Part shown: positions 3,523 to 49,175 of the stretch, in pieces
How the letters are laid out: the number at the start of each line of letters is the position of its first letter
Position numbering within the stretch: position 1 is the first letter of the stretch
Origin: Naegleria gruberi
Taxonomy: Eukaryota
Assembly: GCA_000004985.1 (NCBI GenBank)
Contig: GG738857.1
Direction: 5' to 3' (one strand)
DNA length: 64,000 bases
Notes under the pieces: model-generated
What the model was told of the DNA's origin: nothing
Databases searched by the model: none
What the model saw: only the letters and a program-made list of their open reading frames with translations
Program-made: the position numbers and the translations under genes

Positions 3523-6500
3523 TTATATTAAAACTCTCTTGTATGTAATTAAATATTCAGGATAGCATTGATTCCTATCATAGATAATATATTCATTGTA
3601 GGTGTGTTGTGATACCGACTTGGATCTTCCAATAACACTGTCATAAACTCTTCCATTTGAGTTTTCAATGACAGGTGGTCTTCTTTCATTTCTCATCTTT
3701 TCCCTTGTTTTGAAAACCATCTGACCTAACAGAACTCTACTGAGAAATATAAAACACTCACCATCCTTATTCGAAACACAATATTGATCACTCTTACTAC
3801 AGCAATCAGCAAAGTATATTCCAGCTCCAAACAAACCACTCAAAGCACTCAATCTTTCATCAAAGCCGTGTTCTGAAATGATTGACTTGACTACTTCTGT
3901 TGTTCCATGCCATAAATAAACTTCATTCACATTGGAATCTAATTCACACATTTCGTCAACAAAATCATTTCTAATTGGTATATCCATTACCTTCTTTTTA
4001 TCCTTATAGGAAATTAGGTGTTTCTTCTTTGATAGATACATTTCATAAAGTGATAAATTCTCAATTCTTTCCACTTTTAGAACTTGTAACTTGTTATATG
4101 GAAATGAATCTTTTTCATGGTTTCGTTTCTTTCCTAATGTAATTGTTACACATGTCTTATCCAATAAATCTTGAATATCCTCTTTTAATTCAGCGGTAAC
4201 ATCTATAATTGACATGTTATTTTGATTTGATTTCCAATAGGAAGGCTTTTGTTTCGTTTCCTTTCTTCTTGTCCCACGAAAGAATTCATGTCTTAATAAC
4301 TCAGATGCAGATAAAGTACAAATTTCTTCACGAATATTAATTGAGTCCATTAGCGTTTTCAAAAGAGATGAATATTCATCGAGTCGTTCCATTGACATGA
4401 TGTCAATTACCATTTTCACGAAACAAAACATTTCTTTCTGGAATGGTAATTTGTTTCCCTTTTCCTCTATTTTCACAACATTATCAAATCCATCCAATAT
4501 TAATTTAACTTGTTCATCTTCAATAATTTTCACATACACATTCGCAGCTCTAATATTTCCATGAACAAATGAATAGGTATGAAAATGATGAATGGCTGAA
4601 AGAATCTGAAACCAAATATCTTCCCATCCTGATCTAATGGATGAAAAATCTTTCAATGTTCCAATTGAGTAATATGGCATAACAATACAAAGTTTATCTT
4701 GACAAAGATAAAATCCAATTAATTCTGCAATATTTGAATGTTTGATTTTCTCTAGAATTTCAACTTGTTCAATTACCATTTCAATTTTATCCAATGAATA
4801 TTGTTTAACACGATAGAAAATATTCGAATTCTTATCAACTGCCTCAATAAGCATATAATTCAGAAATGCAGTTTCACTAATTGTAGTCAATTCCAAAGTG
4901 CTTACATCTTGAATTCCTATAATTTCTGATAGTAAATCATAGAATCCTGATCGATAGAGTGTAATTGATTTGTTTCGAATATCATTTCTGTTAATTTGAA
5001 GAGTTTCGAGTTCAGTTTCTTGTTCCATAATTTTTAGACAGGGCGCAGTTGATGTTGAGTTGTTTGTTTCCCACAATTTTTTCTCAATTTCAATTGATCT
5101 TTTGCGTGCTTCAATGTTCTCACTCATTAATTTGTAATTAATTCCATATTTAGAAATATCAAATTTAGAAATTATTGTTAAAGTTAATTGCATATTTTTA
5201 AATTCATTACAGATGGTAGTAATATTATTGATAAAATCAAGGCAATTATTTTTCATATCATCAATAAAGTAGCAATATCCTTTCAATTTCTTTTTCAATA
5301 AATGATACAATTCCAAATTTGGATTTTCTTTCAATAAGGAAAATAATTTTGAAATGGAATCTCCAATATCATTTGTATCATTGCTTATTTCTGAAAATTC
5401 AAGTGTTGAAATATTACTTGAAAAATTTGAAAGAAAATTTGCAACTCCACTCAATTGCTTATTACATGTATTAATCCATTTCTCCAAATTAGTCGAATAT
5501 TCTTCAAATGTTAATTCCAATTCTTCATAATTCGATATTTCATTACATGGAATTTCTTCTCCACCATTCAAAAATTCATTAATTTCTTTAGAAATTTCAC
5601 TCAAACTCTTTACAAATTCAATAAGAAAATTTCCATAATCACTTTTCTTAATTTGATTATTCATTGATTCATGGATTTGAAATTTGCTTCGAAATTCAAT
5701 TAAATCTTGAGGATTTTGTGATGAATAAATCGATTTTGAATTAATTTGGATAGGGCTGAGAAGATTCTTAATATCTGTAAACTTTTTCATGTCATATTCG
5801 TTAATTATGATATTTCTAATAAGTCTATCAGTGGTAAATCTTATAGTTTCCAATTGATTTTTCCTATTTTTGTATTCGAAACCTAATTGGGAAAGCTCTG
5901 TAAATATTGATGCAAAATGAATGAATTTAATTTCTATTGGAGATGTGCTAGTAGATGCTTGACTCACTTCTACATTAATTTCTTTTGTTTCCACATTAGT
6001 CTTATTTCTTTTTTCAGATTTCATTTCCTTTTGAATCGTTTTTATGGATTTCCCGCCACATTTCAATGCTATTGATATTTTGATATTAGGATGTTCTAAT
6101 AATAATTTTCACAATTTCAATTTTATCTCTTTCGCAAGCAACTTGCAAAGGTGTTTTAACCTTCCAAAATTGGTAAAATAAAAACTTGCAAATTAATACT
6201 TACCATCTTTAATCTTAAAACTCAATTAATTAAATATCAAACTTACATTCTGAATAATTCAATAAATGTATACTCATCATTAACAAGTTACTTACACCCT
6301 TATTAACATCCAATTCATTTGATTCCAATAATAATTTCACAATTTCAAGATGACCATCATAACATGCAATAAACAAACAAGTTTGTTCTGATTCTACACC
6401 ACAAAATGTCTTGAATAACAAGCTAATAAGTATTCATTTTGCTTCAAATCATACTTACTTCATTGACATTGACAAGTGACAGTAAATATTTGACAATCTC

Positions 6501-6800: not shown

Positions 6801-8432
6801 TTAATTCTTTTTTGACACTCTGACAATTACTTTTGCCTTCTCATAAATACTTCTCGATTGCAACTGCATTAGGGATGGAAAGACTGTGCACTGAATCTTT
6901 GGAATGGTTGTGTTATTTCTTGCATCTTGTTCGTATGGATTAAAATTGTCCTTTGCTTTATACCAAACGAATTCCAACTTTTTTGAATTGGTAAACATTT
7001 TCATGTAGAGTTCAATTGCCTTATCAAGTAATTCTGAGGTTAGATTACTAACTTCCCGATCTCTACAAATATGCTCAGGATTCTCAACTTTGAATTTGTT
7101 GAAAACGTGTTCAATGGAGGTGAAAATCTCATTGTGGCAGCTTTTGAGTAGTTTTTTCTTATCTGAATCTTCCAATGGCTTGCATCCATAACCTAATTTC
7201 TTGTCTTTCAATCTGTGTTGTAATGATTTGCCCTTATTGTCGTCTTGAGCTGGTGAAAAGAGGTATTTGGCTAATTCCATTTCAATTTCACATTCAAAAT
7301 CTTGTGCTACATCATCTCCATTAAGATTTTCACTCATTTCTTCACAAAGAGAACCCAATGAATTCTTAATTTCAAAATAAGCATCCTTAATTGACTTGGT
7401 GGTATTGTCGGAGAAATTGTTCATCTCAAGAGCTGGATCATGTTCTGCTTTGACAATTCTAAAATTATCTTCAAGTTGAGCAATCTTTGATTCTAAACCA
7501 TTTTTCAGTTCGATTAGTGCTTCTTTTTCTTTCTCAAATCTTGATTGGTTTTCACTTGCTTCGGTTCTCATTCTGTTTTTATCCTTTTCCAGATTTGAGA
7601 TTTTACTTTCAAGAGATTGAAGGTTTGCCTGGAGTTCAAGTGTGTCATTTTTAAGATCCTTATTATCACTTCTCAAATCTTCAAGCTTTTTGGTTGTATT
7701 TTTGTGGCTGTCTTGTTCAGTCTTCAACTTTTGTTTAGTTTCATCATGTTCACTTCTCAATTTGTTGAAATTCTTTTCTAAAGTGTCCTTTTCCTTCTTG
7801 AGATCTGTAAATTCTTTTTTCTTTGTATTCAATTCAGTAATCTTTTGATCTTTTTCACTAACCAATTGCTTTTCACGGTTCTGCAAATCATCATTTTCTT
7901 TCTTTAATTTCTTCTCATTATCTCTTGCTTCATTGCTTTCTTTGGTTAATTTTTTAATTCTTTCATCTTGATTTTGGGATTTTTCTAATGAGATTGATTT
8001 AAGGAATTCAACAAGTTTCTTATCAACTTGTACAGTGTCTAATATGTCTCTTAATCTGTCAACTTCCTTGGTATGCTTTTCTGACTCTTCCTGGATGTGG
8101 TTAACTTTGTTTTTTTCCTTATCAAGATTACTTTGGAGAATAGAAACTTGTTTTCTTTGACTCTCTAAATCTTGTTTAACCTTGTCAAGTTCGTGTTGGA
8201 GGATTTGTGCTACATTCTTTTCCTGGTCCCAATTACTTTGCAGATTGGAGGTTGTTAGCTTTTCTTTATTAAAGGCCTCTTCAATTGACTTGAGTTGAGT
8301 TTGAAGTTGTGAAATTCTTTTTTGATAATGGGAGGGATCTACTTCTTGTGTTGGGGGTGGAACATCACTTGTTGGTTGTTGTTGGGGTTTGATGGTGGAT
8401 GATGGTTTATTTGAATTGGATTCGTTTGTCAT
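6801..8432 (-). CDS. Coiled-coil protein, paralog family member P2, with a conserved C-terminal domain
   Basis: It is a long heptad-rich ORF (K/E/L/Q) with the motif HDPALEMNNFSDN and the C-terminal block LEFVWYKAKDNFNPYEQDARN...FPSLM, shared with P1 and P3. The ATG at 8432 has an aaaaaaaATG context. Confidence 0.6.
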   Translation of the reverse strand: MTNESNSNKPSSTIKPQQQPTSDVPPPTQEVDPSHYQKRISQLQTQLKSIEEAFNKEKLTTSNLQSNWDQEKNVAQILQHELDKVKQDLESQRKQVSILQSNLDKEKNKVNHIQEESEKHTKEVDRLRDILDTVQVDKKLVEFLKSISLEKSQNQDERIKKLTKESNEARDNEKKLKKENDDLQNREKQLVSEKDQKITELNTKKKEFTDLKKEKDTLEKNFNKLRSEHDETKQKLKTEQDSHKNTTKKLEDLRSDNKDLKNDTLELQANLQSLESKISNLEKDKNRMRTEASENQSRFEKEKEALIELKNGLESKIAQLEDNFRIVKAEHDPALEMNNFSDNTTKSIKDAYFEIKNSLGSLCEEMSENLNGDDVAQDFECEIEMELAKYLFSPAQDDNKGKSLQHRLKDKKLGYGCKPLEDSDKKKLLKSCHNEIFTSIEHVFNKFKVENPEHICRDREVSNLTSELLDKAIELYMKMFTNSKKLEFVWYKAKDNFNPYEQDARNNTTIPKIQCTVFPSLMQLQSRSIYEKAKVIVRVSKKN

Positions 8433-8566
8433 TTTTTTTAAAGACGTACGAAAATTTGACGAGTTGTAATGTAATTTTGAAACCTGCATTCCGTGTTCCG
8501 TTCTGTGAATTGACGAGTCATCATTCACTTGTCAAATGTTTAACTATCAAACAAATAATCAAAAAA

Positions 8567-9778
8567 ATGGGATTCTTTGGGTTTTTCAGTGATGACAATA
8601 AAGAAGAAATAAAGAAGGAGTTGAAGGCGGCAAAGGAACAAATTGAATACCAAAAGAAAGAGGTAGAAAGCCAGCGAAACAAAATTATAACATTAGAAAC
8701 AAATAACACCAATTTGCAAACTAGAAACACAACTTTACTCCAAGAATTTAAAATTTTAAACCCGAAACTTGAAAAATTAACACTTGAAAAACAAAATTGC
8801 GAATATATTTCCTCTCAATATCAAGCAAAAGCACAAGAATTGAACAAGAAATTACAAGAACTCGACAAGCAGTACAATTCCACTGTTCAAAATCTCAACA
8901 CTGAATTACAATCTTGTAAATTTCAATTCAATCAAGCAATCACTGAGTGGAAGCAAGAGAAGAACAAATTTGAATTAGAATTGAAAAGTGTAAAACAATC
9001 AAGAGATCAACAAATTTCTTATTCCACTCAATTACATTCAGCATTGACTGAAGAAAGAGAGAATTTCATAAACTTGTCCCAAACCAAAGAACAAGAAATT
9101 GAAAAGTTGAAAGCTGACATTATTTTAATCAAAGCTCAAAATGATCCAGCACTTGTTGTCAATGATTTCTCAGATGAAAGTCCTAAACAAATTAGAGATT
9201 TGTATCTTCAATCAAAATCAAGTATTGACACTTTGACAACAACCTTGGAAGACAATTTGACAGAAGATGAACAAGAACAATTGGAAATTATTATAGCCAA
9301 GACACTCTTTGAGAAATTAGAAGAGACTGTTATGAAATTTGTGTGTGAAACAAAACAAGTTGACAGCAGTGATAGAAAGCTCATTGGTGAATTATTGAAA
9401 TCAGATATTGAAATGAGAAAGCTTGTTATTTATCATACTTCAGTTGGATTAATGAATCAAATTAAGGAACAATTTGCCAGTTTTAGTAATTTTATTGAAA
9501 ATTGTAAAGATGAAGAAAGAATTCAAATTCAAAATGAAATTGACACAATGTCAACAAGTTCAATTTCAATGCTAGCAATGATCTTGAGAAATGAGCAAAA
9601 TATTGGTTTCGTTTGGTATAAACCAAAATCAGATTTCAATACTTTAGAACAAAGATCAAGAAATGCTGATAAGAAAATTGTAATTGATACTTGCATTTAT
9701 CCTTGTTTAATGTTGAAGGGATCAAGAAGTGTTTTTGAACAAGCAGTTGTTACAACAAAATTAACAAAACACAAATAA
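8567..9778 (+). CDS. Coiled-coil protein, paralog family member P3, with a conserved C-terminal domain
   Basis: The ATG at 8567 (aaaaaaaATG) is divergent from P2, with about 134 bp of shared upstream region. It carries the motif NDPALVVNDFSDE and the C-terminal GFVWYKPKSDFNTLEQRSRN...YPCLM. Confidence 0.6.
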   Translation: MGFFGFFSDDNKEEIKKELKAAKEQIEYQKKEVESQRNKIITLETNNTNLQTRNTTLLQEFKILNPKLEKLTLEKQNCEYISSQYQAKAQELNKKLQELDKQYNSTVQNLNTELQSCKFQFNQAITEWKQEKNKFELELKSVKQSRDQQISYSTQLHSALTEERENFINLSQTKEQEIEKLKADIILIKAQNDPALVVNDFSDESPKQIRDLYLQSKSSIDTLTTTLEDNLTEDEQEQLEIIIAKTLFEKLEETVMKFVCETKQVDSSDRKLIGELLKSDIEMRKLVIYHTSVGLMNQIKEQFASFSNFIENCKDEERIQIQNEIDTMSTSSISMLAMILRNEQNIGFVWYKPKSDFNTLEQRSRNADKKIVIDTCIYPCLMLKGSRSVFEQAVVTTKLTKHK

Positions 9779-9994
9779 ATATTTACAAATATTACAAAAT
9801 ATTTAAAAATATTGAAAAAATTACTGTAAATTTTGATCATCACACTAAATCTGCATTAACTTTCTACACAATTGTAGTTGACGGAATTTACGGAATTGAA
9901 AATTGTAATATGACTTAATTTGACATGGGAAGTGTCCATTTCAACACGTCATGTCAAAGTTTCTAATTATCAATTCTCAAAAAACAAAAAAAAT

Positions 9995-11871
9995 ATGAGC
10001 ACCAGCACCCTCATCAAACCACAAGCAGGTAAAAACTTTGTCGTTTGCATTGACTTTGGATCTTCAGGTTCTGGCAGTTCAATTCTCTTCGTAAAGGATG
10101 AAGATAAAATTTTCACTCTCAAAACTTATCCAGACTCCCCTAACGTAGTTTACAATAAGAATATGTCATGTATTTTATATGAAGATGGTAAGAGACATAG
10201 TATTGGTTATACTGCTAGAAAGACAATGTTCTTTGAAAATGATGACGAAGATTCAGATGAAGATTCCGGTGAAGATTCGGATAGAGATTCAGATAGTGAA
10301 AGTGAAGAATCTCATGGATCAACTTCAACTGCTCCATCAAAAAAATCAGCAACTCCACTAAAAGATAGAAAATTTATCAGAGATTTAAAAATTCAATTCA
10401 TGGAAGCAACAAAAGATGAGAAGGAAATTTCAATTCCAGAAATAGTAATTTCCAATGATGGAACAACCAAATCTTTACTTGATGTGATGGCAGATTACTT
10501 ATCCATGTTATTCACAGATTTTATCATGAAGAGTTTAAAGAATAACGATAGCTCTGTTAAGAAAACTGATGTTCGTTGGTGCATTACAGTTCCCGCCAAC
10601 TATTCAGAACATCAAAAATCCCTAATGAGGAAAGTGGCATGTAAGGCAAAGATTATAGATAAGGAAAATTGTGATGAGAGTGATTTGATTATCATTTCTG
10701 AACCAGATGCTGCTACCATGTTCTGTATGAAACATAAGGCTAAATCTAAACCACTTACAAATGGTGAAACTTTTATGGTAGTTGATGCTGGTGGTGGTAC
10801 TGTAGATGGTAAGTTTGAGAAATTCTTGATTTAACATTTAAATTCTGTAACAGTCAGTTGTCATATGCTTGAAAATGGTAAATTGAAAGAGTTGGCAGTT
10901 CAAAAGGCAGAGCTATGTGGTTCTACATTTATTGATAGAGAATTTATTAAGATTTTAGAAGAAAATTGTGATAATTTCAAAGAATTTACAGAGAAAAATC
11001 CAGAAACTCTTGTCAAGATATTATCAATTTGGGAAGATGTTAAGAGAGGTACTTTGACAGTTGACAAGAAATTGACATTTGACACATCTCCAATGTTTAA
11101 AAAAGCAAAACCTAATAGTTCAATTTACAAATCAAGATCTACCAAGATTGCATTAACAGATGAACAAATGAAAAGAATATTTGACAGTCAAGTGTCAAAA
11201 GCACTCAAATTGATTGATGAAGTTTATAGAGATTATGAAGAAGATTATCCAAGTAGAAAGATGGATCACTTATTTATTGTTGGTGGTTTAGGAGATAATG
11301 GTTATTTCCAAAATCGTATTAAGGAAAGATTTGAAAAGAAATTTAAGGAAATTTTAATTCCACTTTTCTGTTCGACAGCTGTCATGGAAGGAGGTGCATT
11401 ACTTGCTAAGGATCCATCATTCGTTCAAGAAAATCAAAGTTATCATATGGTGTTGGTGTCATGGAAGAATTTGAAGAAGGGCATCATGCTGAAAGCAAGT
11501 ACAAGGTCATTAATGGTAAACATATGGCAGTTGACGTGTTGGATGTTTTTGTTGAACAACGTGAAGAAGTTGAAATTGATAGAGAAATTGTTAGAGAATA
11601 TGAATGTTTACCAGGTGCTACTCAAATTGATGTTGTTCTCTATTCATCTATTAAGAGAAGAGAAGCAATTCCTTATATTGATTCACCACTAGTTTCTAAA
11701 GAGGAAACAATTACAATTCCTTTTAGAGATTCATCAAAGGAGGCAGATAGAAGAGTTTTTATTAAATTCTTCTTTGGTAAATCAGAATTAATGATTACTG
11801 TTGAAAATGCACAAGGTGAAGTTAAGGAAATTAAGAGAGATTTTGAAGCAAACTCACTTGCCCTAAAATAA
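9995..11871 (+). CDS. HSPA12-like Hsp70-superfamily ATPase, paralog A. Exon 9995..10808, intron 10809..10853, exon 10854..11871 with an apparent 1-nt frame change near 11410-11420 (possible pseudogene or assembly indel)
   Basis: Shared motifs with HSPA12A: VVCIDFGSSGSG (HSPA12A VVAIDFGTTSSG); WCITVPANYSEHQKSLMRKVA ([21 protein letters not shown]); MVVDAGGGTVD then splice to VSCHMLENGKLKELA (VVVDSGGGTVDLTVH). After the frame change the reading frame gives LSYGVGVMEEFEEG..., which matches paralog B RMTYGVKAQKGSEE and human PLTYGVGV. Confidence 0.6.
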
Positions 11872-12116
11872 ATAGTTGAAATTCCATTCACAAAAATCTT
11901 AATATTTATTAGTATGAGCGAAATATAACCTCAATATCATTATTACAATCTGATCTTTTTCGTTTATCAAAACTGTAGAAAGCTTTTTTTGAACTGTAGT
12001 CACTCTCGAATCGTGATTCATTGTAAAACTTGTCAAACTTACCGATCAGAATTCCGTATGACGTACGATTTCTCATTTCTCATCAGTTTATTCTGTTCCA
12101 TTAACACACAAAAAAA

Positions 12117-13901
12117 ATGTCATCATCAACTGTTCCTGTTCGTTCAGGTTCCCTCAACAAGAAGAAAGTTGTCATTTCCATTGATTTTGGTACATCAAGA
12201 ACTGGTTTCTGTTATTCACTCACCAATGATGTGAAAAAGACTCGAGTTAAGAATACCTCATGGAAAGATGCACCAAGTGGAGTTTCATTCCCAAAGACTC
12301 TCACTCAATTACTTTATGAAAAGAGTGATACAAGAAAACCTGTTGCTTGGGGTTACACTTCACTTGACATGTTGTCAAGAGAATTTGAAGATGAGAGTGA
12401 ATCTGATGAAGATGAAGAAGGTGGTGAAGAGATTCCAGCACAAAATAGCAAGTATTATCATTTCAAGACATTCAAAATGGGATTATTCAATAATCCATCT
12501 GGTATGGTGAAGGATACAACTGGTGTTTTTGAAAAGAATGTTGGTGAATTGATAGTTGACTATTTGAAATTATTATTCCATGATCAGATTAAGCCAACTG
12601 TTGAGAAATCATTGGGATCTAAATTGAATCTTGATGAAGTTACTTGGTGTTTAACAGTTCCAGCCATTTGGAAAGATGAACAAAAATCAGATATGAGATT
12701 AGCTGCTTACACTGCTGGTTTAACAAAGACACCTGAAGCATCTTCTGATGATTTTAAGATTATTCTTGAACCAGAAGGAGCTGCTGCTTATTGTATGGAA
12801 TATCAAGCTTCTAAAGGTAAACCATTGAGAGAGGGCGAATCATTCCTTGTTTGTGATCTTGGTGGTGGTACAGTTGACTTGACATGTCATAAATTTGAAA
12901 AGGCAAGATTGAGAGAATTAGCTGAAGGATCTGGTGATGCATGTGGTTCTACATATTTAGATGATGCTTTTATTATTTATTTGGAAGAATGTTTTGGTAA
13001 GAAATTTGTTGAAACCTTAAGGAAAAAGTATGGCCAAACTTATTTGGACATTTTAAAGATTTGGGAAAGAACAAAAGTTACAACAACAGATTTAACAAAA
13101 GATATTAATGTTGATATGCCTGGTCAATTAAGTAGTTTTTTAGAAAGTGCCAATGTTAAAAGTGATAAATTCAGAGCTAAAAGAGGTCAACTCAAAATTA
13201 CAAGTGAAGCTTTACAAACAATTTATCAAGATTCATTAGAAAAAACAAGAAATCTTGTTGAAAAGCAATTAGAAACAATCCAATCAGAGACTGGTAAAAT
13301 GGTTGATTATATTTTCATAGTTGGTGGTTTTGGTGCTTCCAAAGTAGTTCAAAACTTTCTAATTGACAATTTCTCTTCACAAGTTAAGGGAATTGTAATT
13401 CCAAATGAACCTGCTGAAGCTGTTGTTGATGGTGCTGCATTATTAGGTATTGATGATTCATTAATTTCAACACGTAGAATGAGAATGACTTATGGAGTTA
13501 AAGCTCAAAAAGGAAGTGAAGAAATATTCGATACTTTTGTAATTGCTAATCAAGAACTTGAAGTTGATCAAGGAATTTCAAGAGAATACAAAGTTCAAAG
13601 AGCTAATCAACAAGCTATGAAAATAATCATCTACAGCACTAAATTGAAATCAATTACAAAAGTTGACGAAACTAAATGTCATAAGATTGGTGAAATTCAA
13701 GTACATATGACAGATATGACAGGTGGCATGGATAGAATAGTGAAAGTTACAATGTATTTTGGTAGATCAGAAACTAGAGTTACTGCCATTGAAAAGAATA
13801 CTGGAATTGAGTATAGTGCATTAATTAAGTATGATGGTGAATTATTTTCACATGGTGAAAGTATTGCTGACACTCCACCAGTTCAACCTCACCATTTGTA
13901 A
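12117..13901 (+). CDS. HSPA12-like Hsp70-superfamily ATPase, paralog B (single exon)
   Basis: VISIDFGTSRTG, WCLTVPAIWKDEQKSDMRLAAYTAGL, ILEPEGAAAYC, FLVCDLGGGTVDLTCHKF, YIFIVGGFGASK and RMTYGVKA are colinear with the human HSPA12A motifs. The ATG has an aaaaaaaATG context. Confidence 0.8.
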   Translation: MSSSTVPVRSGSLNKKKVVISIDFGTSRTGFCYSLTNDVKKTRVKNTSWKDAPSGVSFPKTLTQLLYEKSDTRKPVAWGYTSLDMLSREFEDESESDEDEEGGEEIPAQNSKYYHFKTFKMGLFNNPSGMVKDTTGVFEKNVGELIVDYLKLLFHDQIKPTVEKSLGSKLNLDEVTWCLTVPAIWKDEQKSDMRLAAYTAGLTKTPEASSDDFKIILEPEGAAAYCMEYQASKGKPLREGESFLVCDLGGGTVDLTCHKFEKARLRELAEGSGDACGSTYLDDAFIIYLEECFGKKFVETLRKKYGQTYLDILKIWERTKVTTTDLTKDINVDMPGQLSSFLESANVKSDKFRAKRGQLKITSEALQTIYQDSLEKTRNLVEKQLETIQSETGKMVDYIFIVGGFGASKVVQNFLIDNFSSQVKGIVIPNEPAEAVVDGAALLGIDDSLISTRRMRMTYGVKAQKGSEEIFDTFVIANQELEVDQGISREYKVQRANQQAMKIIIYSTKLKSITKVDETKCHKIGEIQVHMTDMTGGMDRIVKVTMYFGRSETRVTAIEKNTGIEYSALIKYDGELFSHGESIADTPPVQPHHL

Positions 13902-13974
13902 GTATAGAATGTTATATTGAAGTTTACAATTTCTAACTGTTAAAAGAATTTTTGCAAATGATGTTTCAGGATCA

Positions 13975-14556
13975 ATGTGGGCAAGAGATGCTTTACCAAC
14001 AATGAGTTTACTTAAAGTAAGTATTCTTCCATGATGTTTTTTACTAATATTCAATTAGACCTCTCATAATAACAGAGTAGGAGCACTTTATGAAGCATGT
14101 TATGCCTTTTTAGAAACAAGAAAAGAAACTTCAGATATTTCATCGTGTATTCTTCATAATCATGATTCAATCATTATTTATGATAAAAAACCTGCAACTC
14201 CATCACTTGTTTCTGATTACATGATGAAATATAATGCCGACGGTGGCAACAACTTTTTAAAAGTATTCGAAACTGTCGAACAAGTTCTCAAATCGAGTAA
14301 TAACGAGGAATTCAAACCAATAGTTTTCTTTATGACAGATGGTGCTTGGCACGACGACGGAGCACCTGCCTACTTGGAAGGCTTAATGTTAAGATATCCA
14401 GATTTAACAGTTCATGTCATTAATTTGGGTAGTTCAATTAATTTTGAATTGATGAATAGAATTGCAAAGATTGGTAGAGGAACCATTTCAACATCTGGAA
14501 TGAGCGCTGTAGAATTGAAGAGTACCTATCTCAGCTTGCTTCCTTACTTGGATTAA
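13975..14556 (+). CDS. VWA-like (von Willebrand factor A) domain ORF. Exon 13975..14016, intron 14017..14058, exon 14059..14556. The 5' structure is uncertain and it may be an alternative C-terminal module of the upstream HSPA12-like gene
   Basis: SIIIYDKKPATPSLVSDYMMKYNADGGNNFLKVFETVEQVL...KPIVFFMTDGAWHDDGAP is a typical VWA beta4/MIDAS-Asp region (hydrophobic-TDG). The intron runs GTAAGT..AG and is phase-consistent. It lies only 73 bp after the HSPA12-B stop codon. No DxSxS MIDAS start was found. Confidence 0.45.
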
Positions 14557-17413: not shown

Positions 17414-18790
17414 TTAGTAACTTTCTATTACACACGCTTTTAAAGATGAAATAATTATTTCAAATTGTTGTGAACAATTAATATTATGATTTCTTTCTTT
17501 GCAAAATTCAATTAATGGAATAAAATTAGCAAGAAAATGAGTTGTAAAAAGAGATCTCTCACCAATTTCAGTTTTAAATTCATTCTCCAAATTGCTAGAA
17601 TCACAGCAATCGTCACAAATATCAAATGAATCATAACCATCCACTGTTGATTGATAAAATCCTGAACATGTTTGATCACATATTTTACATGTCTTTGTTG
17701 ATTCAATTTTAAAAATATCAAAATTATTTCCATACTTTTGTTTCATGTTTGGAATCAAGTTACTTATTTCTGATGGTAAATGATTTAATAATTCAAAATA
17801 TTGTAAAAATTCAACAATACTTCTTCCTACACATGTCAATTTGTGATCATTTAGGTATGATTTGATTAACCATTTTAGTGATTCTTCCATATTTGGCAAT
17901 GTACCAACACCAACACAATACATGTAAGCTACTCCATATTGTGCAAAGCAATAGTTTTGTTTGGCTGATTTTAACAACCATTCAAGTCCAAGTTTTAAAT
18001 CTTTTTCATAATATTCACCAGAATAGTAATAAATACCAATCCAATATTGAGCTAAACAATTTCCATTTCCAGCAGATTTGAAATACCAATCTGTTGCTTT
18101 TTTGAACTCTTCATTAAGTCTATAATGTCTAGCGAGTTTATGTTGATATTTACTATTTCCTAATTCAGCTCCTTTTAAAAGCCATTTTTCTTTCATTTCT
18201 GATGAATTTTTGTTTAATTTTTTCATTTTCTTTATGGCAGGAAAATAATTTAATTCTGCTGATTTTTCCAAAAATGTAATATCCTTATTATATAAATAAA
18301 TTAAATAGTTAAAAATTGGATTATTGGTTTGTTTGGCACATTTTTTATAAACCTTGTTCAATTTAATTCTACTTTTAATATTTGGTAAATCAATTTCAAA
18401 TTTTTTTAATTGTTTAATAATTGAATTTGGAGAAATAATTAATTTTTCCAATACTTTTAAACTAAAATCACCACTTAAATATAATTTTTCCAATTTTGTA
18501 AATAATTTACAATTAAAAATAGTTTTTAACATTTCAGTATTTACATTATTAAAACTACATTTACAAATTTGTAATACTATTTGACTATTACAAAATTTTT
18601 CCATATCCGAAAGTGAAACAAAACGTGTAGAAACCATTTTCAATTTTAAATAGTAATAAATAGACATATCAGACCAATATTTACAAACAAGTCTATGAAC
18701 CAACCATTCATTTGGTAGATAACTTGAAATGTGTGCTAAAATCTCAGGTGGAATTTCATCATTGAAATTTCGTTTTGATAAATTAGACAT
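17414..18790 (-). CDS. F-box / Sel1-like repeat / ZZ-type zinc finger protein
   Basis: The N-terminal IPPEILAHISSYLPNEWL is an F-box. The middle has Sel1/TPR-like repeats (AQYWIGIYYYSGEYYEKDLKLGLEWLLKSA; AQYGVAYMYCVGVG). The C-terminal Cys cluster CKICDQTCSGFYQSTVDGYDSFDICDDCC is ZZ-like. It is a single exon with an aaaaaaaATG start. Confidence 0.7.
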   Translation of the reverse strand: MSNLSKRNFNDEIPPEILAHISSYLPNEWLVHRLVCKYWSDMSIYYYLKLKMVSTRFVSLSDMEKFCNSQIVLQICKCSFNNVNTEMLKTIFNCKLFTKLEKLYLSGDFSLKVLEKLIISPNSIIKQLKKFEIDLPNIKSRIKLNKVYKKCAKQTNNPIFNYLIYLYNKDITFLEKSAELNYFPAIKKMKKLNKNSSEMKEKWLLKGAELGNSKYQHKLARHYRLNEEFKKATDWYFKSAGNGNCLAQYWIGIYYYSGEYYEKDLKLGLEWLLKSAKQNYCFAQYGVAYMYCVGVGTLPNMEESLKWLIKSYLNDHKLTCVGRSIVEFLQYFELLNHLPSEISNLIPNMKQKYGNNFDIFKIESTKTCKICDQTCSGFYQSTVDGYDSFDICDDCCDSSNLENEFKTEIGERSLFTTHFLANFIPLIEFCKERNHNINCSQQFEIIISSLKACVIESY

Positions 18791-46315: not shown

Positions 46316-46386
46316 TCGGGTGTGGTATAGTGGTAGCATTCCAGACTGTCACTCTGGCGACCCGGGTTCAATTCCCGGCACTCGAG
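46316..46386 (+). tRNA. tRNA-Asp (anticodon GTC)
   Basis: TCGGGTG-TG-GTATAGTGGTAGCAT-T-CCAGA-CTGTCAC-TCTGG-CGAC-CCGGG-TTCAATT-CCCGG-CACTCGA-G. The acceptor stem has 7 bp including one G.U pair. The anticodon loop CTGTCAC gives anticodon GUC, and the T-loop is TTCAATT. A T5 run at 46392-46396 serves as the Pol III terminator. Confidence 0.85.
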
Positions 46387-47084: not shown

Positions 47085-47202
47085 GGCTACGGCCATATCA
47101 CGATGAATGCACCTCATCCCGTCCGATTTGAGAAGTTAAGCATCGTCGAGCCACATCAGTACTGAGGTTGGAGACAACTTGGGAACCTGTGGTGCTGTAG
47201 TC
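47085..47202 (+). rRNA. 5S ribosomal RNA, copy 1
   Basis: GGCTACGGCCATATCACGATGAATGCACCTCATCCCGTCCGATTTGAGAAGTTAAGC...GGGAACCTGTGGTGCTGTAGTC aligns along its length to eukaryotic 5S consensus (GCCTACGGCCATACCAC...CCCGTCCGATCTG.GAAGTTAAGC...GGGAATACCGGGTGCTGTAGGC). Helix I pairs, and TTTTT follows at 47203-47207. Confidence 0.9.
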
Positions 47203-47207
47203 TTTTT
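47203..47207 (+). terminator. Pol III T5 terminator after 5S copy 1
   Basis: TTTTT run immediately 3' of helix I. Confidence 0.5.
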
Positions 47208-49052: not shown

Positions 49053-49170
49053 GGCTACGGCCATATCACTATGAATGCACCTCATCCCGTCCGATTTGAG
49101 AAGTTAAGCATAGTCGAGCCACATCAGTACTGAGGTTGGAGACAACTTGGGAACCTGTGGTGCTGTAGTC
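49053..49170 (+). rRNA. 5S ribosomal RNA, copy 2
   Basis: It is 118 nt, identical to copy 1 except ...CACtATG... and ...CATaGTCG.... TTTTT follows at 49171-49175. Confidence 0.9.
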
Positions 49171-49175
49171 TTTTT
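49171..49175 (+). terminator. Pol III T5 terminator after 5S copy 2
   Basis: TTTTT run immediately 3' of the 5S gene. Confidence 0.5.

Follow-up and report, generated by a model that had tools for sequence, protein, structure and literature searches.

An HSPA12-like gene of Naegleria gruberi predicted to encode an Hsp70-type ATPase with a C-terminal VWA domain, and its VWA-less neighbour

Introduction

The animal proteins HSPA12A and HSPA12B (Hsp70-12) have been studied in stress and endothelial contexts and belong to a poorly understood branch of the Hsp70-like ATPases. This study concerns two HSPA12-like genes, copy A and copy B, in a 64,000-nucleotide stretch of contig GG738857.1 of Naegleria gruberi (assembly GCA_000004985.1); this stretch, at its full length, is called the window below. 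Copy B, at 12117-14556, is with high confidence a single three-exon gene for a 782-residue protein in which an Hsp70-like body is followed by a VWA domain. What has been learned of the animal proteins need not carry over to copy B. The motifs DxGT(S/T), EPxAA, GGGT and VGG, which have been listed for Hsp70 groups (PMC12692333), are shared by copy B and HSPA12A/B, as is a beta-rich C-terminal domain; copy B differs from them in the addition of a C-terminal VWA domain of the type that has a metal-ion-dependent adhesion site (MIDAS). With canonical Hsp70, DnaK and BiP it shares the two-domain body composed of a nucleotide-binding domain (NBD) and the beta part of a substrate-binding domain (SBD-beta), but the identity is only ~18%, and the helical lid (SBD-alpha) is missing, a linker and the VWA domain being found in its place. 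The fungal and Streptomyces proteins named 'Hsp70 family / actin-like ATPase' that carry DUF8340 are also similar, and the public model of copy A has a precomputed match to PF27033 (DUF8340).

The coupling of a nucleoside triphosphatase (NTPase) to a MIDAS-type VWA domain, by fusion or adjacency, is known for AAA+ ATPases. In the MoxR-VWA pairs such as RavA-ViaA, in midasin and in bacterial ternary conflict systems, the VWA domain is a peptide-binding co-chaperone module (PMC7159879). Copy B shows the same kind of coupling, but its NTPase has the actin/Hsp70 fold, its host is a eukaryote, and neither an effector nor a third component came to light. A further comparison is offered by the alpha-kinases of the vWKa type, such as Dictyostelium VwkA, in which the VWA domain is N-terminal (PMC2827801), unlike the C-terminal VWA domain of copy B. 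Full-text literature searches brought up no description of a protein in which a MIDAS VWA domain replaces the lid behind an Hsp70-type NBD and SBD-beta.

Results

Copy B is a three-exon gene

Read without splicing, copy B is an open reading frame (ORF) of 594 codons, unbroken up to a TAA at 13899-13901, and a GTAAGT at 13898-13903 overlaps this stop. A preliminary description of this DNA had reported both features correctly and had added that a splice from this GTAAGT would be out of phase, which is true only for a TTTCAG acceptor at 13969. The first AG past a CTAAC branch-point-like element lies at 13945-13946, and the join 13897/13947 is in frame: ...CAT TT|A ATT TTT GCA AAT GAT GTT TCA GGA TCA ATG... 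reads H-L-I-F-A-N-D-V-S-G-S-M and is preceded by PH. The splice from donor 13898 to acceptor 13946 restores strand beta1 of the VWA domain together with its DxSGS metal-binding (MIDAS) motif, which every MIDAS-type VWA domain needs. The resulting model, with exons at 12117-13897, 13947-14016 and 14059-14556, matched GenBank XP_002679444.1 (D2V8K0) with 100% identity from end to end, a record named 'chaperone protein [Naegleria gruberi strain NEG-M]' whose annotation has exactly these junctions.

The region past the TAA had been taken for a small ATG exon followed by a 166-codon exon. The 166-codon block is indeed present (14059-14556), and an ATG at 13975, 73 nt past the TAA, is in the VWA frame; it does not, however, mark an initiation exon, the real exon 2 being 13947-14016. 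This ATG is Met604, the M of DxSGSM, and the VWA frame is closed upstream by a TGA at 13918; a stand-alone ORF would therefore be missing both strand beta1 and the serines that bind metal. All in-frame ATGs past intron 1 come after DxSGS.

Relatives also encode both domains together. The N. fowleri orthologs (61% identity, 100% coverage), named 'VWFA domain-containing protein' in UniProt, share the positions of both introns to the codon, the donors again being GTAAGT. In two related environmental contigs the Hsp70-like and VWA parts form one uninterrupted ORF, of 781 aa in L001 (174-2519; protein P0003) and of 829 aa in L002 (1399-3888; P0004), and both N. gruberi exon junctions align to these ORFs free of indels (H-[ILV]-IFANDxSGSM and LK|(T/G)(S/T)HNN). 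The synteny check that had been proposed in the preliminary description, which asked whether the domains are fused or adjacent in related species, is answered by these N. fowleri orthologs and environmental ORFs in favour of fusion. HSP70 and VWA also occur together in a Trinity transcript of Flabellula baltica (Amoebozoa), in proteins of Willaertia magna and Anaeramoeba flamelloides, and in marine sequence collections. The Hsp70-VWA architecture is conserved across Heterolobosea, Amoebozoa and Metamonada, mostly with a VWA-less paralog linked to it. As a separate observation, the single N. fowleri contig VFQX01000029.1 carries two B-type copies that are >90% identical, FDP41_002255 (762 aa) and FDP41_002290 (777 aa).

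These results indicate that the apparent stop and the 'extra' VWA ORF come down to ordinary splicing and a miscounted phase, and that the Hsp70-VWA fusion is the standard, annotated and evolutionarily conserved product of copy B. Of the two roles earlier offered for the VWA exons, that of a C-terminus of B is retained, although its status as an alternative isoform is not what the data show, and that of a separate tiny gene is abandoned.

The body of copy B resembles Hsp70 without a lid

Pfam HSP70 matched copy B at 52.8 bits against a cut-off of 20.6, and copy A was also above the cut-off; no Pfam-detectable domains other than Hsp70 and VWA were found in the 782 aa. Copy B carries the motifs IDFGTS, LEPEGAAA, CDLGGGTVD and IVGGFG. 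A profile built from 64 family sequences matched Escherichia coli DnaK at E 7e-31, aligning IDFGT, EPEAAA, DxGGGTVD and VGGF and running on into the start of SBD-beta ('lTYGvev' against 'LSLGIET' of DnaK). In this profile alignment, D23, E218, D247 and T252 of copy B correspond to D8, E171, D194 and T199 of DnaK.

HSPA12A and HSPA12B were among the best named matches outside Heterolobosea (25-27% identity, 70-97% coverage, E 1e-34 to 1e-44), and therefore 'HSPA12-like', the family to which the preliminary description had assigned both genes, is a fair label. DnaK was reached by single-sequence search only at E 1e-6. Judged by these search scores, the view that A and B are closer to HSPA12A/B than to canonical Hsp70 is supported.

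The full-length AlphaFold 2 model of copy B (predicted local distance difference test, pLDDT, 90.8; predicted TM-score, pTM, 0.73) comprises a compact body at residues 13-572, a low-confidence linker at 573-586 and the VWA domain at 592-781. Foldseek matched this model to two-domain DnaK and BiP structures over ~600 columns (E 1e-28 to 1e-22), and the superpositions of lowest root-mean-square deviation were with ATP-bound docked states, e.g. 4b9q and 5e84. No helical lid is present in the model, in which the linker (~15 residues) and the VWA domain take the position of the lid.

The VWA domain and its relatives

The VWA-like character of the C-terminal region, claimed earlier from the sequence, was borne out by its own AlphaFold 2 model (pLDDT 92.1, pTM 0.90), for which the top 50 PDB matches in Foldseek were all VWA domains (TM 0.6-0.75). 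The best of them, at TM ~0.7, were BatB, ArnA, Rpn10, TFIIH p44 and vWF A1. The DxSxS (D599, S601 and S603) and distal Asp (D711) of the MIDAS do not vary within the fused family, and copy B has the canonical residue at four of the five MIDAS positions.

An exhaustive profile search with the VWA domain yielded 583 proteins at E <= 1e-10, the best 150 of which were inspected. These 150 include, besides Hsp70-like-VWA fusions, dinoflagellate VWA-alpha-kinase proteins of the vWKa type (E ~1e-20), another N. gruberi protein (XP_002668176.1), and giant GBP/URGCP/RHD3-like GTPases in which the VWA domain is C-terminal, some with additional SAM or protein-kinase domains. The GTPase-VWA proteins P0191, P0201, P0202, P0234 and P0239 are 1,359-2,644 aa long and come from Gefionella, Dracoamoeba, an MMETSP transcriptome and a fern assembly. 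The alpha-kinase domain (PF02816) was absent from copy B and from the scanned Hsp70-VWA relatives, and present in other proteins sharing the VWA subtype. Since this subtype is common to the vWKa alpha-kinases, it probably accounts for the name 'alpha kinase/eEF2 kinase' given to the Anaeramoeba homologs. Another 15 of the 150 are ORFs of ~180 aa whose first residue is the Met of DxSGSM; one of them, P0121, comes from an assembled sequencing run.

Copy A carries a 4-bp deletion hidden by a public gene model

Copy A had been described as having one short intron and an internal frame change, and both were found, the intron at 10809-10853 (45 nt) and the frame change near 11420. The gene has the motifs IDFGSS, SEPDAA, DAGGGTVD and IVGGLG, and its halves on either side of the frame change both align to copy B with 32% identity. 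Window 10157-12084 has a 97.9% identical counterpart in the metagenome contig L003 (ENA ERZ929261), which contains an intact ORF reading ...DPSYIRSRKSKLSYGV...; relative to the window L003 has four extra bases (CCATC-ATAT-ATTCG), which places the deletion in the window at ~11418/11419. The intron of L003 is 46 nt long; the 1-nt indel by which it differs from the window is of the kind expected in DNA that does not code. Loss of a single base from the run GAAAATC was considered as the lesion of copy A and rejected, because the alignment to the intact allele gives a deletion of 4 bp a little farther upstream.

The public model XP_002679443.1 (590 aa) regains the frame by dropping 11381-11439, thereby losing the conserved segment VMEGGALLAKDPS.... 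As a real intron this stretch was rejected, since in the intact allele it is 63 nt long, is in frame and codes for residues conserved in copy B. The 59-nt 'intron' is most likely an annotation fix that masks the 4-bp deletion.

The two paralogs are repeatedly linked

As had been stated in the preliminary description, copies A and B lie head to tail and 245 bp apart. Both are on the + strand; copy A runs from an ATG at 9995 to its stop at 11869-11871, and the ATG of B is at 12117. The window as a whole is AT-rich eukaryotic DNA. That they are recent tandem duplicates is ruled out by their 32% identity and by a neighbour-joining (NJ) tree in which the B-type clade, with 100% bootstrap support, excludes A. 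Copy A is an old VWA-less paralog of copy B.

Paralogs also adjoin B-type genes elsewhere. In N. fowleri (L005; the comparison covers the locus of the 777-aa copy only) the B ortholog at 8001-10449 is followed 250 bp later by an A ortholog, which is 42% identical to N. gruberi A and scores 350 bits against it, versus 217 for B. In Acrasis kona (L004, JAOPGA020000836.1) an A-like gene at 9001-10713 precedes a B-clade gene at 11023-13566, and in L002 an Hsp70-like paralog, cut off, lies head to head with the fused gene. The adjacency is recurrent, with variable order and orientation. Because the neighbouring paralog is VWA-less in both N. fowleri and Acrasis kona, A and B may work as a pair. The B-clade protein of Acrasis (847 aa) has no VWA domain and carries another C-terminal domain of ~260 aa, which gave a weak Pfam match to ThuA (glutamine-amidotransferase-like) at E 0.008, below the cut-off. 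This difference suggests that the C-terminal module of the HSPA12-like ATPase family is exchangeable.

The features of the locus are listed in Table 1. A coiled-coil-like ORF without a Pfam match lies upstream of copy A (8399-9778, +), and a minus-strand gene converges on copy B ~100 bp past the true stop of B. No HSPA12-like or VWA copies besides A and B were found in a scan of the window, and Pfam detected no AAA+ domain in A, B or the scanned flanking ORFs. Elsewhere in the window, an 846-aa ORF (3523-6066, -) has a protein-kinase-like segment at aa 408-522 and, at its C-terminus, a PARP catalytic domain (E 2.4e-25), a pairing that is unusual. Two full-length 5S rRNA genes (47085-47203 and 49053-49171, +; 105 bits each) lie ~2 kb apart, with tRNA-Asp(GTC) just upstream of them (46316-46386, +). 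The distant flanks contain a BBS1 (BBSome subunit 1) gene (144-1826, +) and an ORF with an F-box and Sel1 repeats (17414-18790, -), neither of which has an obvious tie to the Hsp70-like pair.

Table 1. Coordinates of copy A, copy B and associated features in the window
Feature	Position	Strand	Details
Copy A exon 1	9995..10808	+	XP_002679443.1, NAEGRDRAFT_79007; N-terminal part of HSPA12-like ATPase, with IDFGSS and DAGGGTVD
Copy A intron	10809..10853	+	45 nt, GTAAGT...ACAG
Copy A exon 2	10854..11871	+	Two frames owing to the 4-bp deletion; stop 11869-11871
Public-model 'intron' of copy A	11381..11439	+	59 nt, GTCATG...AAAG; codes for conserved segment VMEGGALLAKDPS...
4-bp deletion site	11416..11421	+	Window CCATC|ATTCG; intact allele CCATCATATATTCG; adding ATAT restores ...DPSYIRSRKSKLSYGV...
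Spacer A-B	11872..12116	+	245 bp; presumed to hold promoter and 5' untranslated region of B
Copy B exon 1	12117..13897	+	NBD ~aa 13-445, SBD-beta-like aa 450-572, disordered linker aa 573-586, first VWA residues
Copy B intron 1	13898..13946	+	49 nt, phase 2, GTAAGT...CTAAC...AAAAG; apparent stop TAA 13899-13901 inside
Copy B exon 2	13947..14016	+	aa 594 (part)-617; VWA strand beta1 and MIDAS DxSGS: D599 (13960-13962), S601, S603
Copy B intron 2	14017..14058	+	42 nt, phase 0, GTAAGT...TACTAAT...TTAG
Copy B exon 3	14059..14556	+	aa 618-782 and stop; remaining VWA; N681 at MIDAS Thr position, D711 (14338-14340)

Discussion

The gene model of copy B was already public (XP_002679444.1), and the Hsp70-VWA architecture that it encodes is best described as an unstudied variant of the NTPase-VWA theme. 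By analogy with MoxR-VWA, RavA-ViaA and midasin (PMC7159879), where VWA domains serve AAA+ ATPases in such a way, the following working model may be considered. The ATPase core of copy B would pass through an ATP-driven conformational cycle like that of Hsp70, the metal site of the tethered VWA domain would hold an acidic residue of a partner protein, and ATP turnover would be coupled to the binding, remodelling or assembly of that partner; the linked VWA-less paralog A is itself a possible partner of B. The specific coupling of ATP cycling to metal-dependent capture by the VWA domain is put forward tentatively, and we regard it as rather doubtful.

Several points weigh against the interpretation of copy B as a spliced ATPase fused to a functional VWA domain. 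Use of the 13898/13946 splice in N. gruberi is predicted from annotation and conservation. The N. gruberi VWA domain falls below the Pfam cut-offs (VWA_3 18.3 and VWA_2 15.4 versus 27 bits), while relatives clear them (P0186, VWA 31.3 vs 23.8; P0185, VWA_2 39.8 vs 27). The MIDAS Thr position is occupied by Asn (N681) in N. gruberi and by Asn in N. fowleri, and by Asn or Asp in the orthologs P0003 and P0004, and therefore metal-dependent ligand binding is not assured; in more distant members (P0005, P0122 and P0076) the residue is Thr. K120 is the putative equivalent of the catalytic lysine, but it was placed by the order of secondary-structure elements only, and the hidden Markov model alignment left it unassigned. 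N. gruberi A and Acrasis A group together with an NJ bootstrap of only 59%, so that a common ancestry of the A copies is weakly supported. Finally, the ATPase activity, the VWA ligand and any interaction between A and B are predictions.

Two other readings of the exons past the TAA have to be weighed against the three-exon gene. If the VWA exons were a separate small gene, independently transcribed and starting at ATG 13975, a product of ~179 aa would be expected; the position of this ATG in the VWA frame and the many database ORFs of ~180 aa that start at exactly this Met would agree with such a gene. Its product, however, would be devoid of strand beta1 and the invariant DxSxS, the gap to the apparent stop of B is only 73 bp, and both domains lie in one continuous ORF in relatives. 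The ~180-aa ORFs look like the same truncation artefact as the one that gives a separate VWA ORF here. We consider a separate gene extremely improbable. Alternatively, intron 1 could be a regulated switch, whose retention would end translation at TAA 13899-13901 and give a VWA-less isoform of 594 aa beside the 782-aa fusion. In N. gruberi as in N. fowleri, a ribosome entering the retained intron would meet the stop at once, as its first codon, and there are paralogs of comparable length that have no VWA domain. Nevertheless, any phase-2 GTAAGT donor creates an in-frame TAA, so the stop needs no special explanation and is no evidence for regulated retention, and in the related environmental contigs this position is free of introns. 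A regulated switch thus appears unlikely, and splicing to the three-exon product remains the preferred reading.

The status of copy A is more evenly balanced. Among the 556 codons compared between the window and L003, 12 differ synonymously and 7 non-synonymously, a sign of purifying selection. It follows that the lesion arose very recently, that only one allele has it, or that it is an error of assembly; copy A as assembled is thus a null allele of very recent origin or a misassembled gene. The reading that the frame change reflects a sequencing or assembly error, or a single haplotype out of several, with copy A fully functional in NEG-M, would fit this selection, the absence of further stops in either half of the gene and the retention of the copy A ortholog in N. 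fowleri. On the other hand, the loss of four bases in a CATATAT microrepeat is atypical of homopolymer base-calling errors, and the public annotators, working with the same sequence, had to invent an intron to pass it. A fully functional copy A is accordingly a serious contender that falls just short of an even chance.

The resemblance to NTPase-VWA partner systems, which the preliminary description had raised, is a reasonable analogy; the same VWA subtype also ends GBP/URGCP-like GTPases. It does not extend to membership: copy B does not belong to the MoxR-VWA systems, since no MoxR-type AAA+ partner of these or of the ternary conflict systems was found in A, B or the scanned flanking ORFs, and the likeness is one of analogy only. 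Nor does copy B belong to the alpha-kinases, as it has no PF02816 domain. On a broader and more speculative view, to which we give little credence, the HSPA12-like ATPases of free-living protists would act as NTPase switches of modular build, in which the C-terminal adaptor can be exchanged, and would work with a linked VWA-less paralog. They would then be to eukaryotes what the NTPase-VWA threshold or conflict systems are to prokaryotes, with a role in, for instance, defence or assembly triggered by stress. The adaptor in this case would be VWA in Naegleria, Willaertia, Flabellula and Anaeramoeba, and ThuA-like in Acrasis.

The locus also illustrates a recurring trap in ORF-based reading. Because a phase-2 GTAAGT donor always yields an in-frame TAA, such a reading cuts the gene short and leaves a false small ORF behind. 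For copy A the present analysis corrects a public gene model, as XP_002679443.1 conceals a 4-bp deletion behind a false intron. For the family, copy B would extend the known pairings of VWA with AAA+ ATPases and with GTPases by one of Hsp70 fold, and its Hsp70-VWA architecture offers a tractable entry to the role of the HSPA12 branch.

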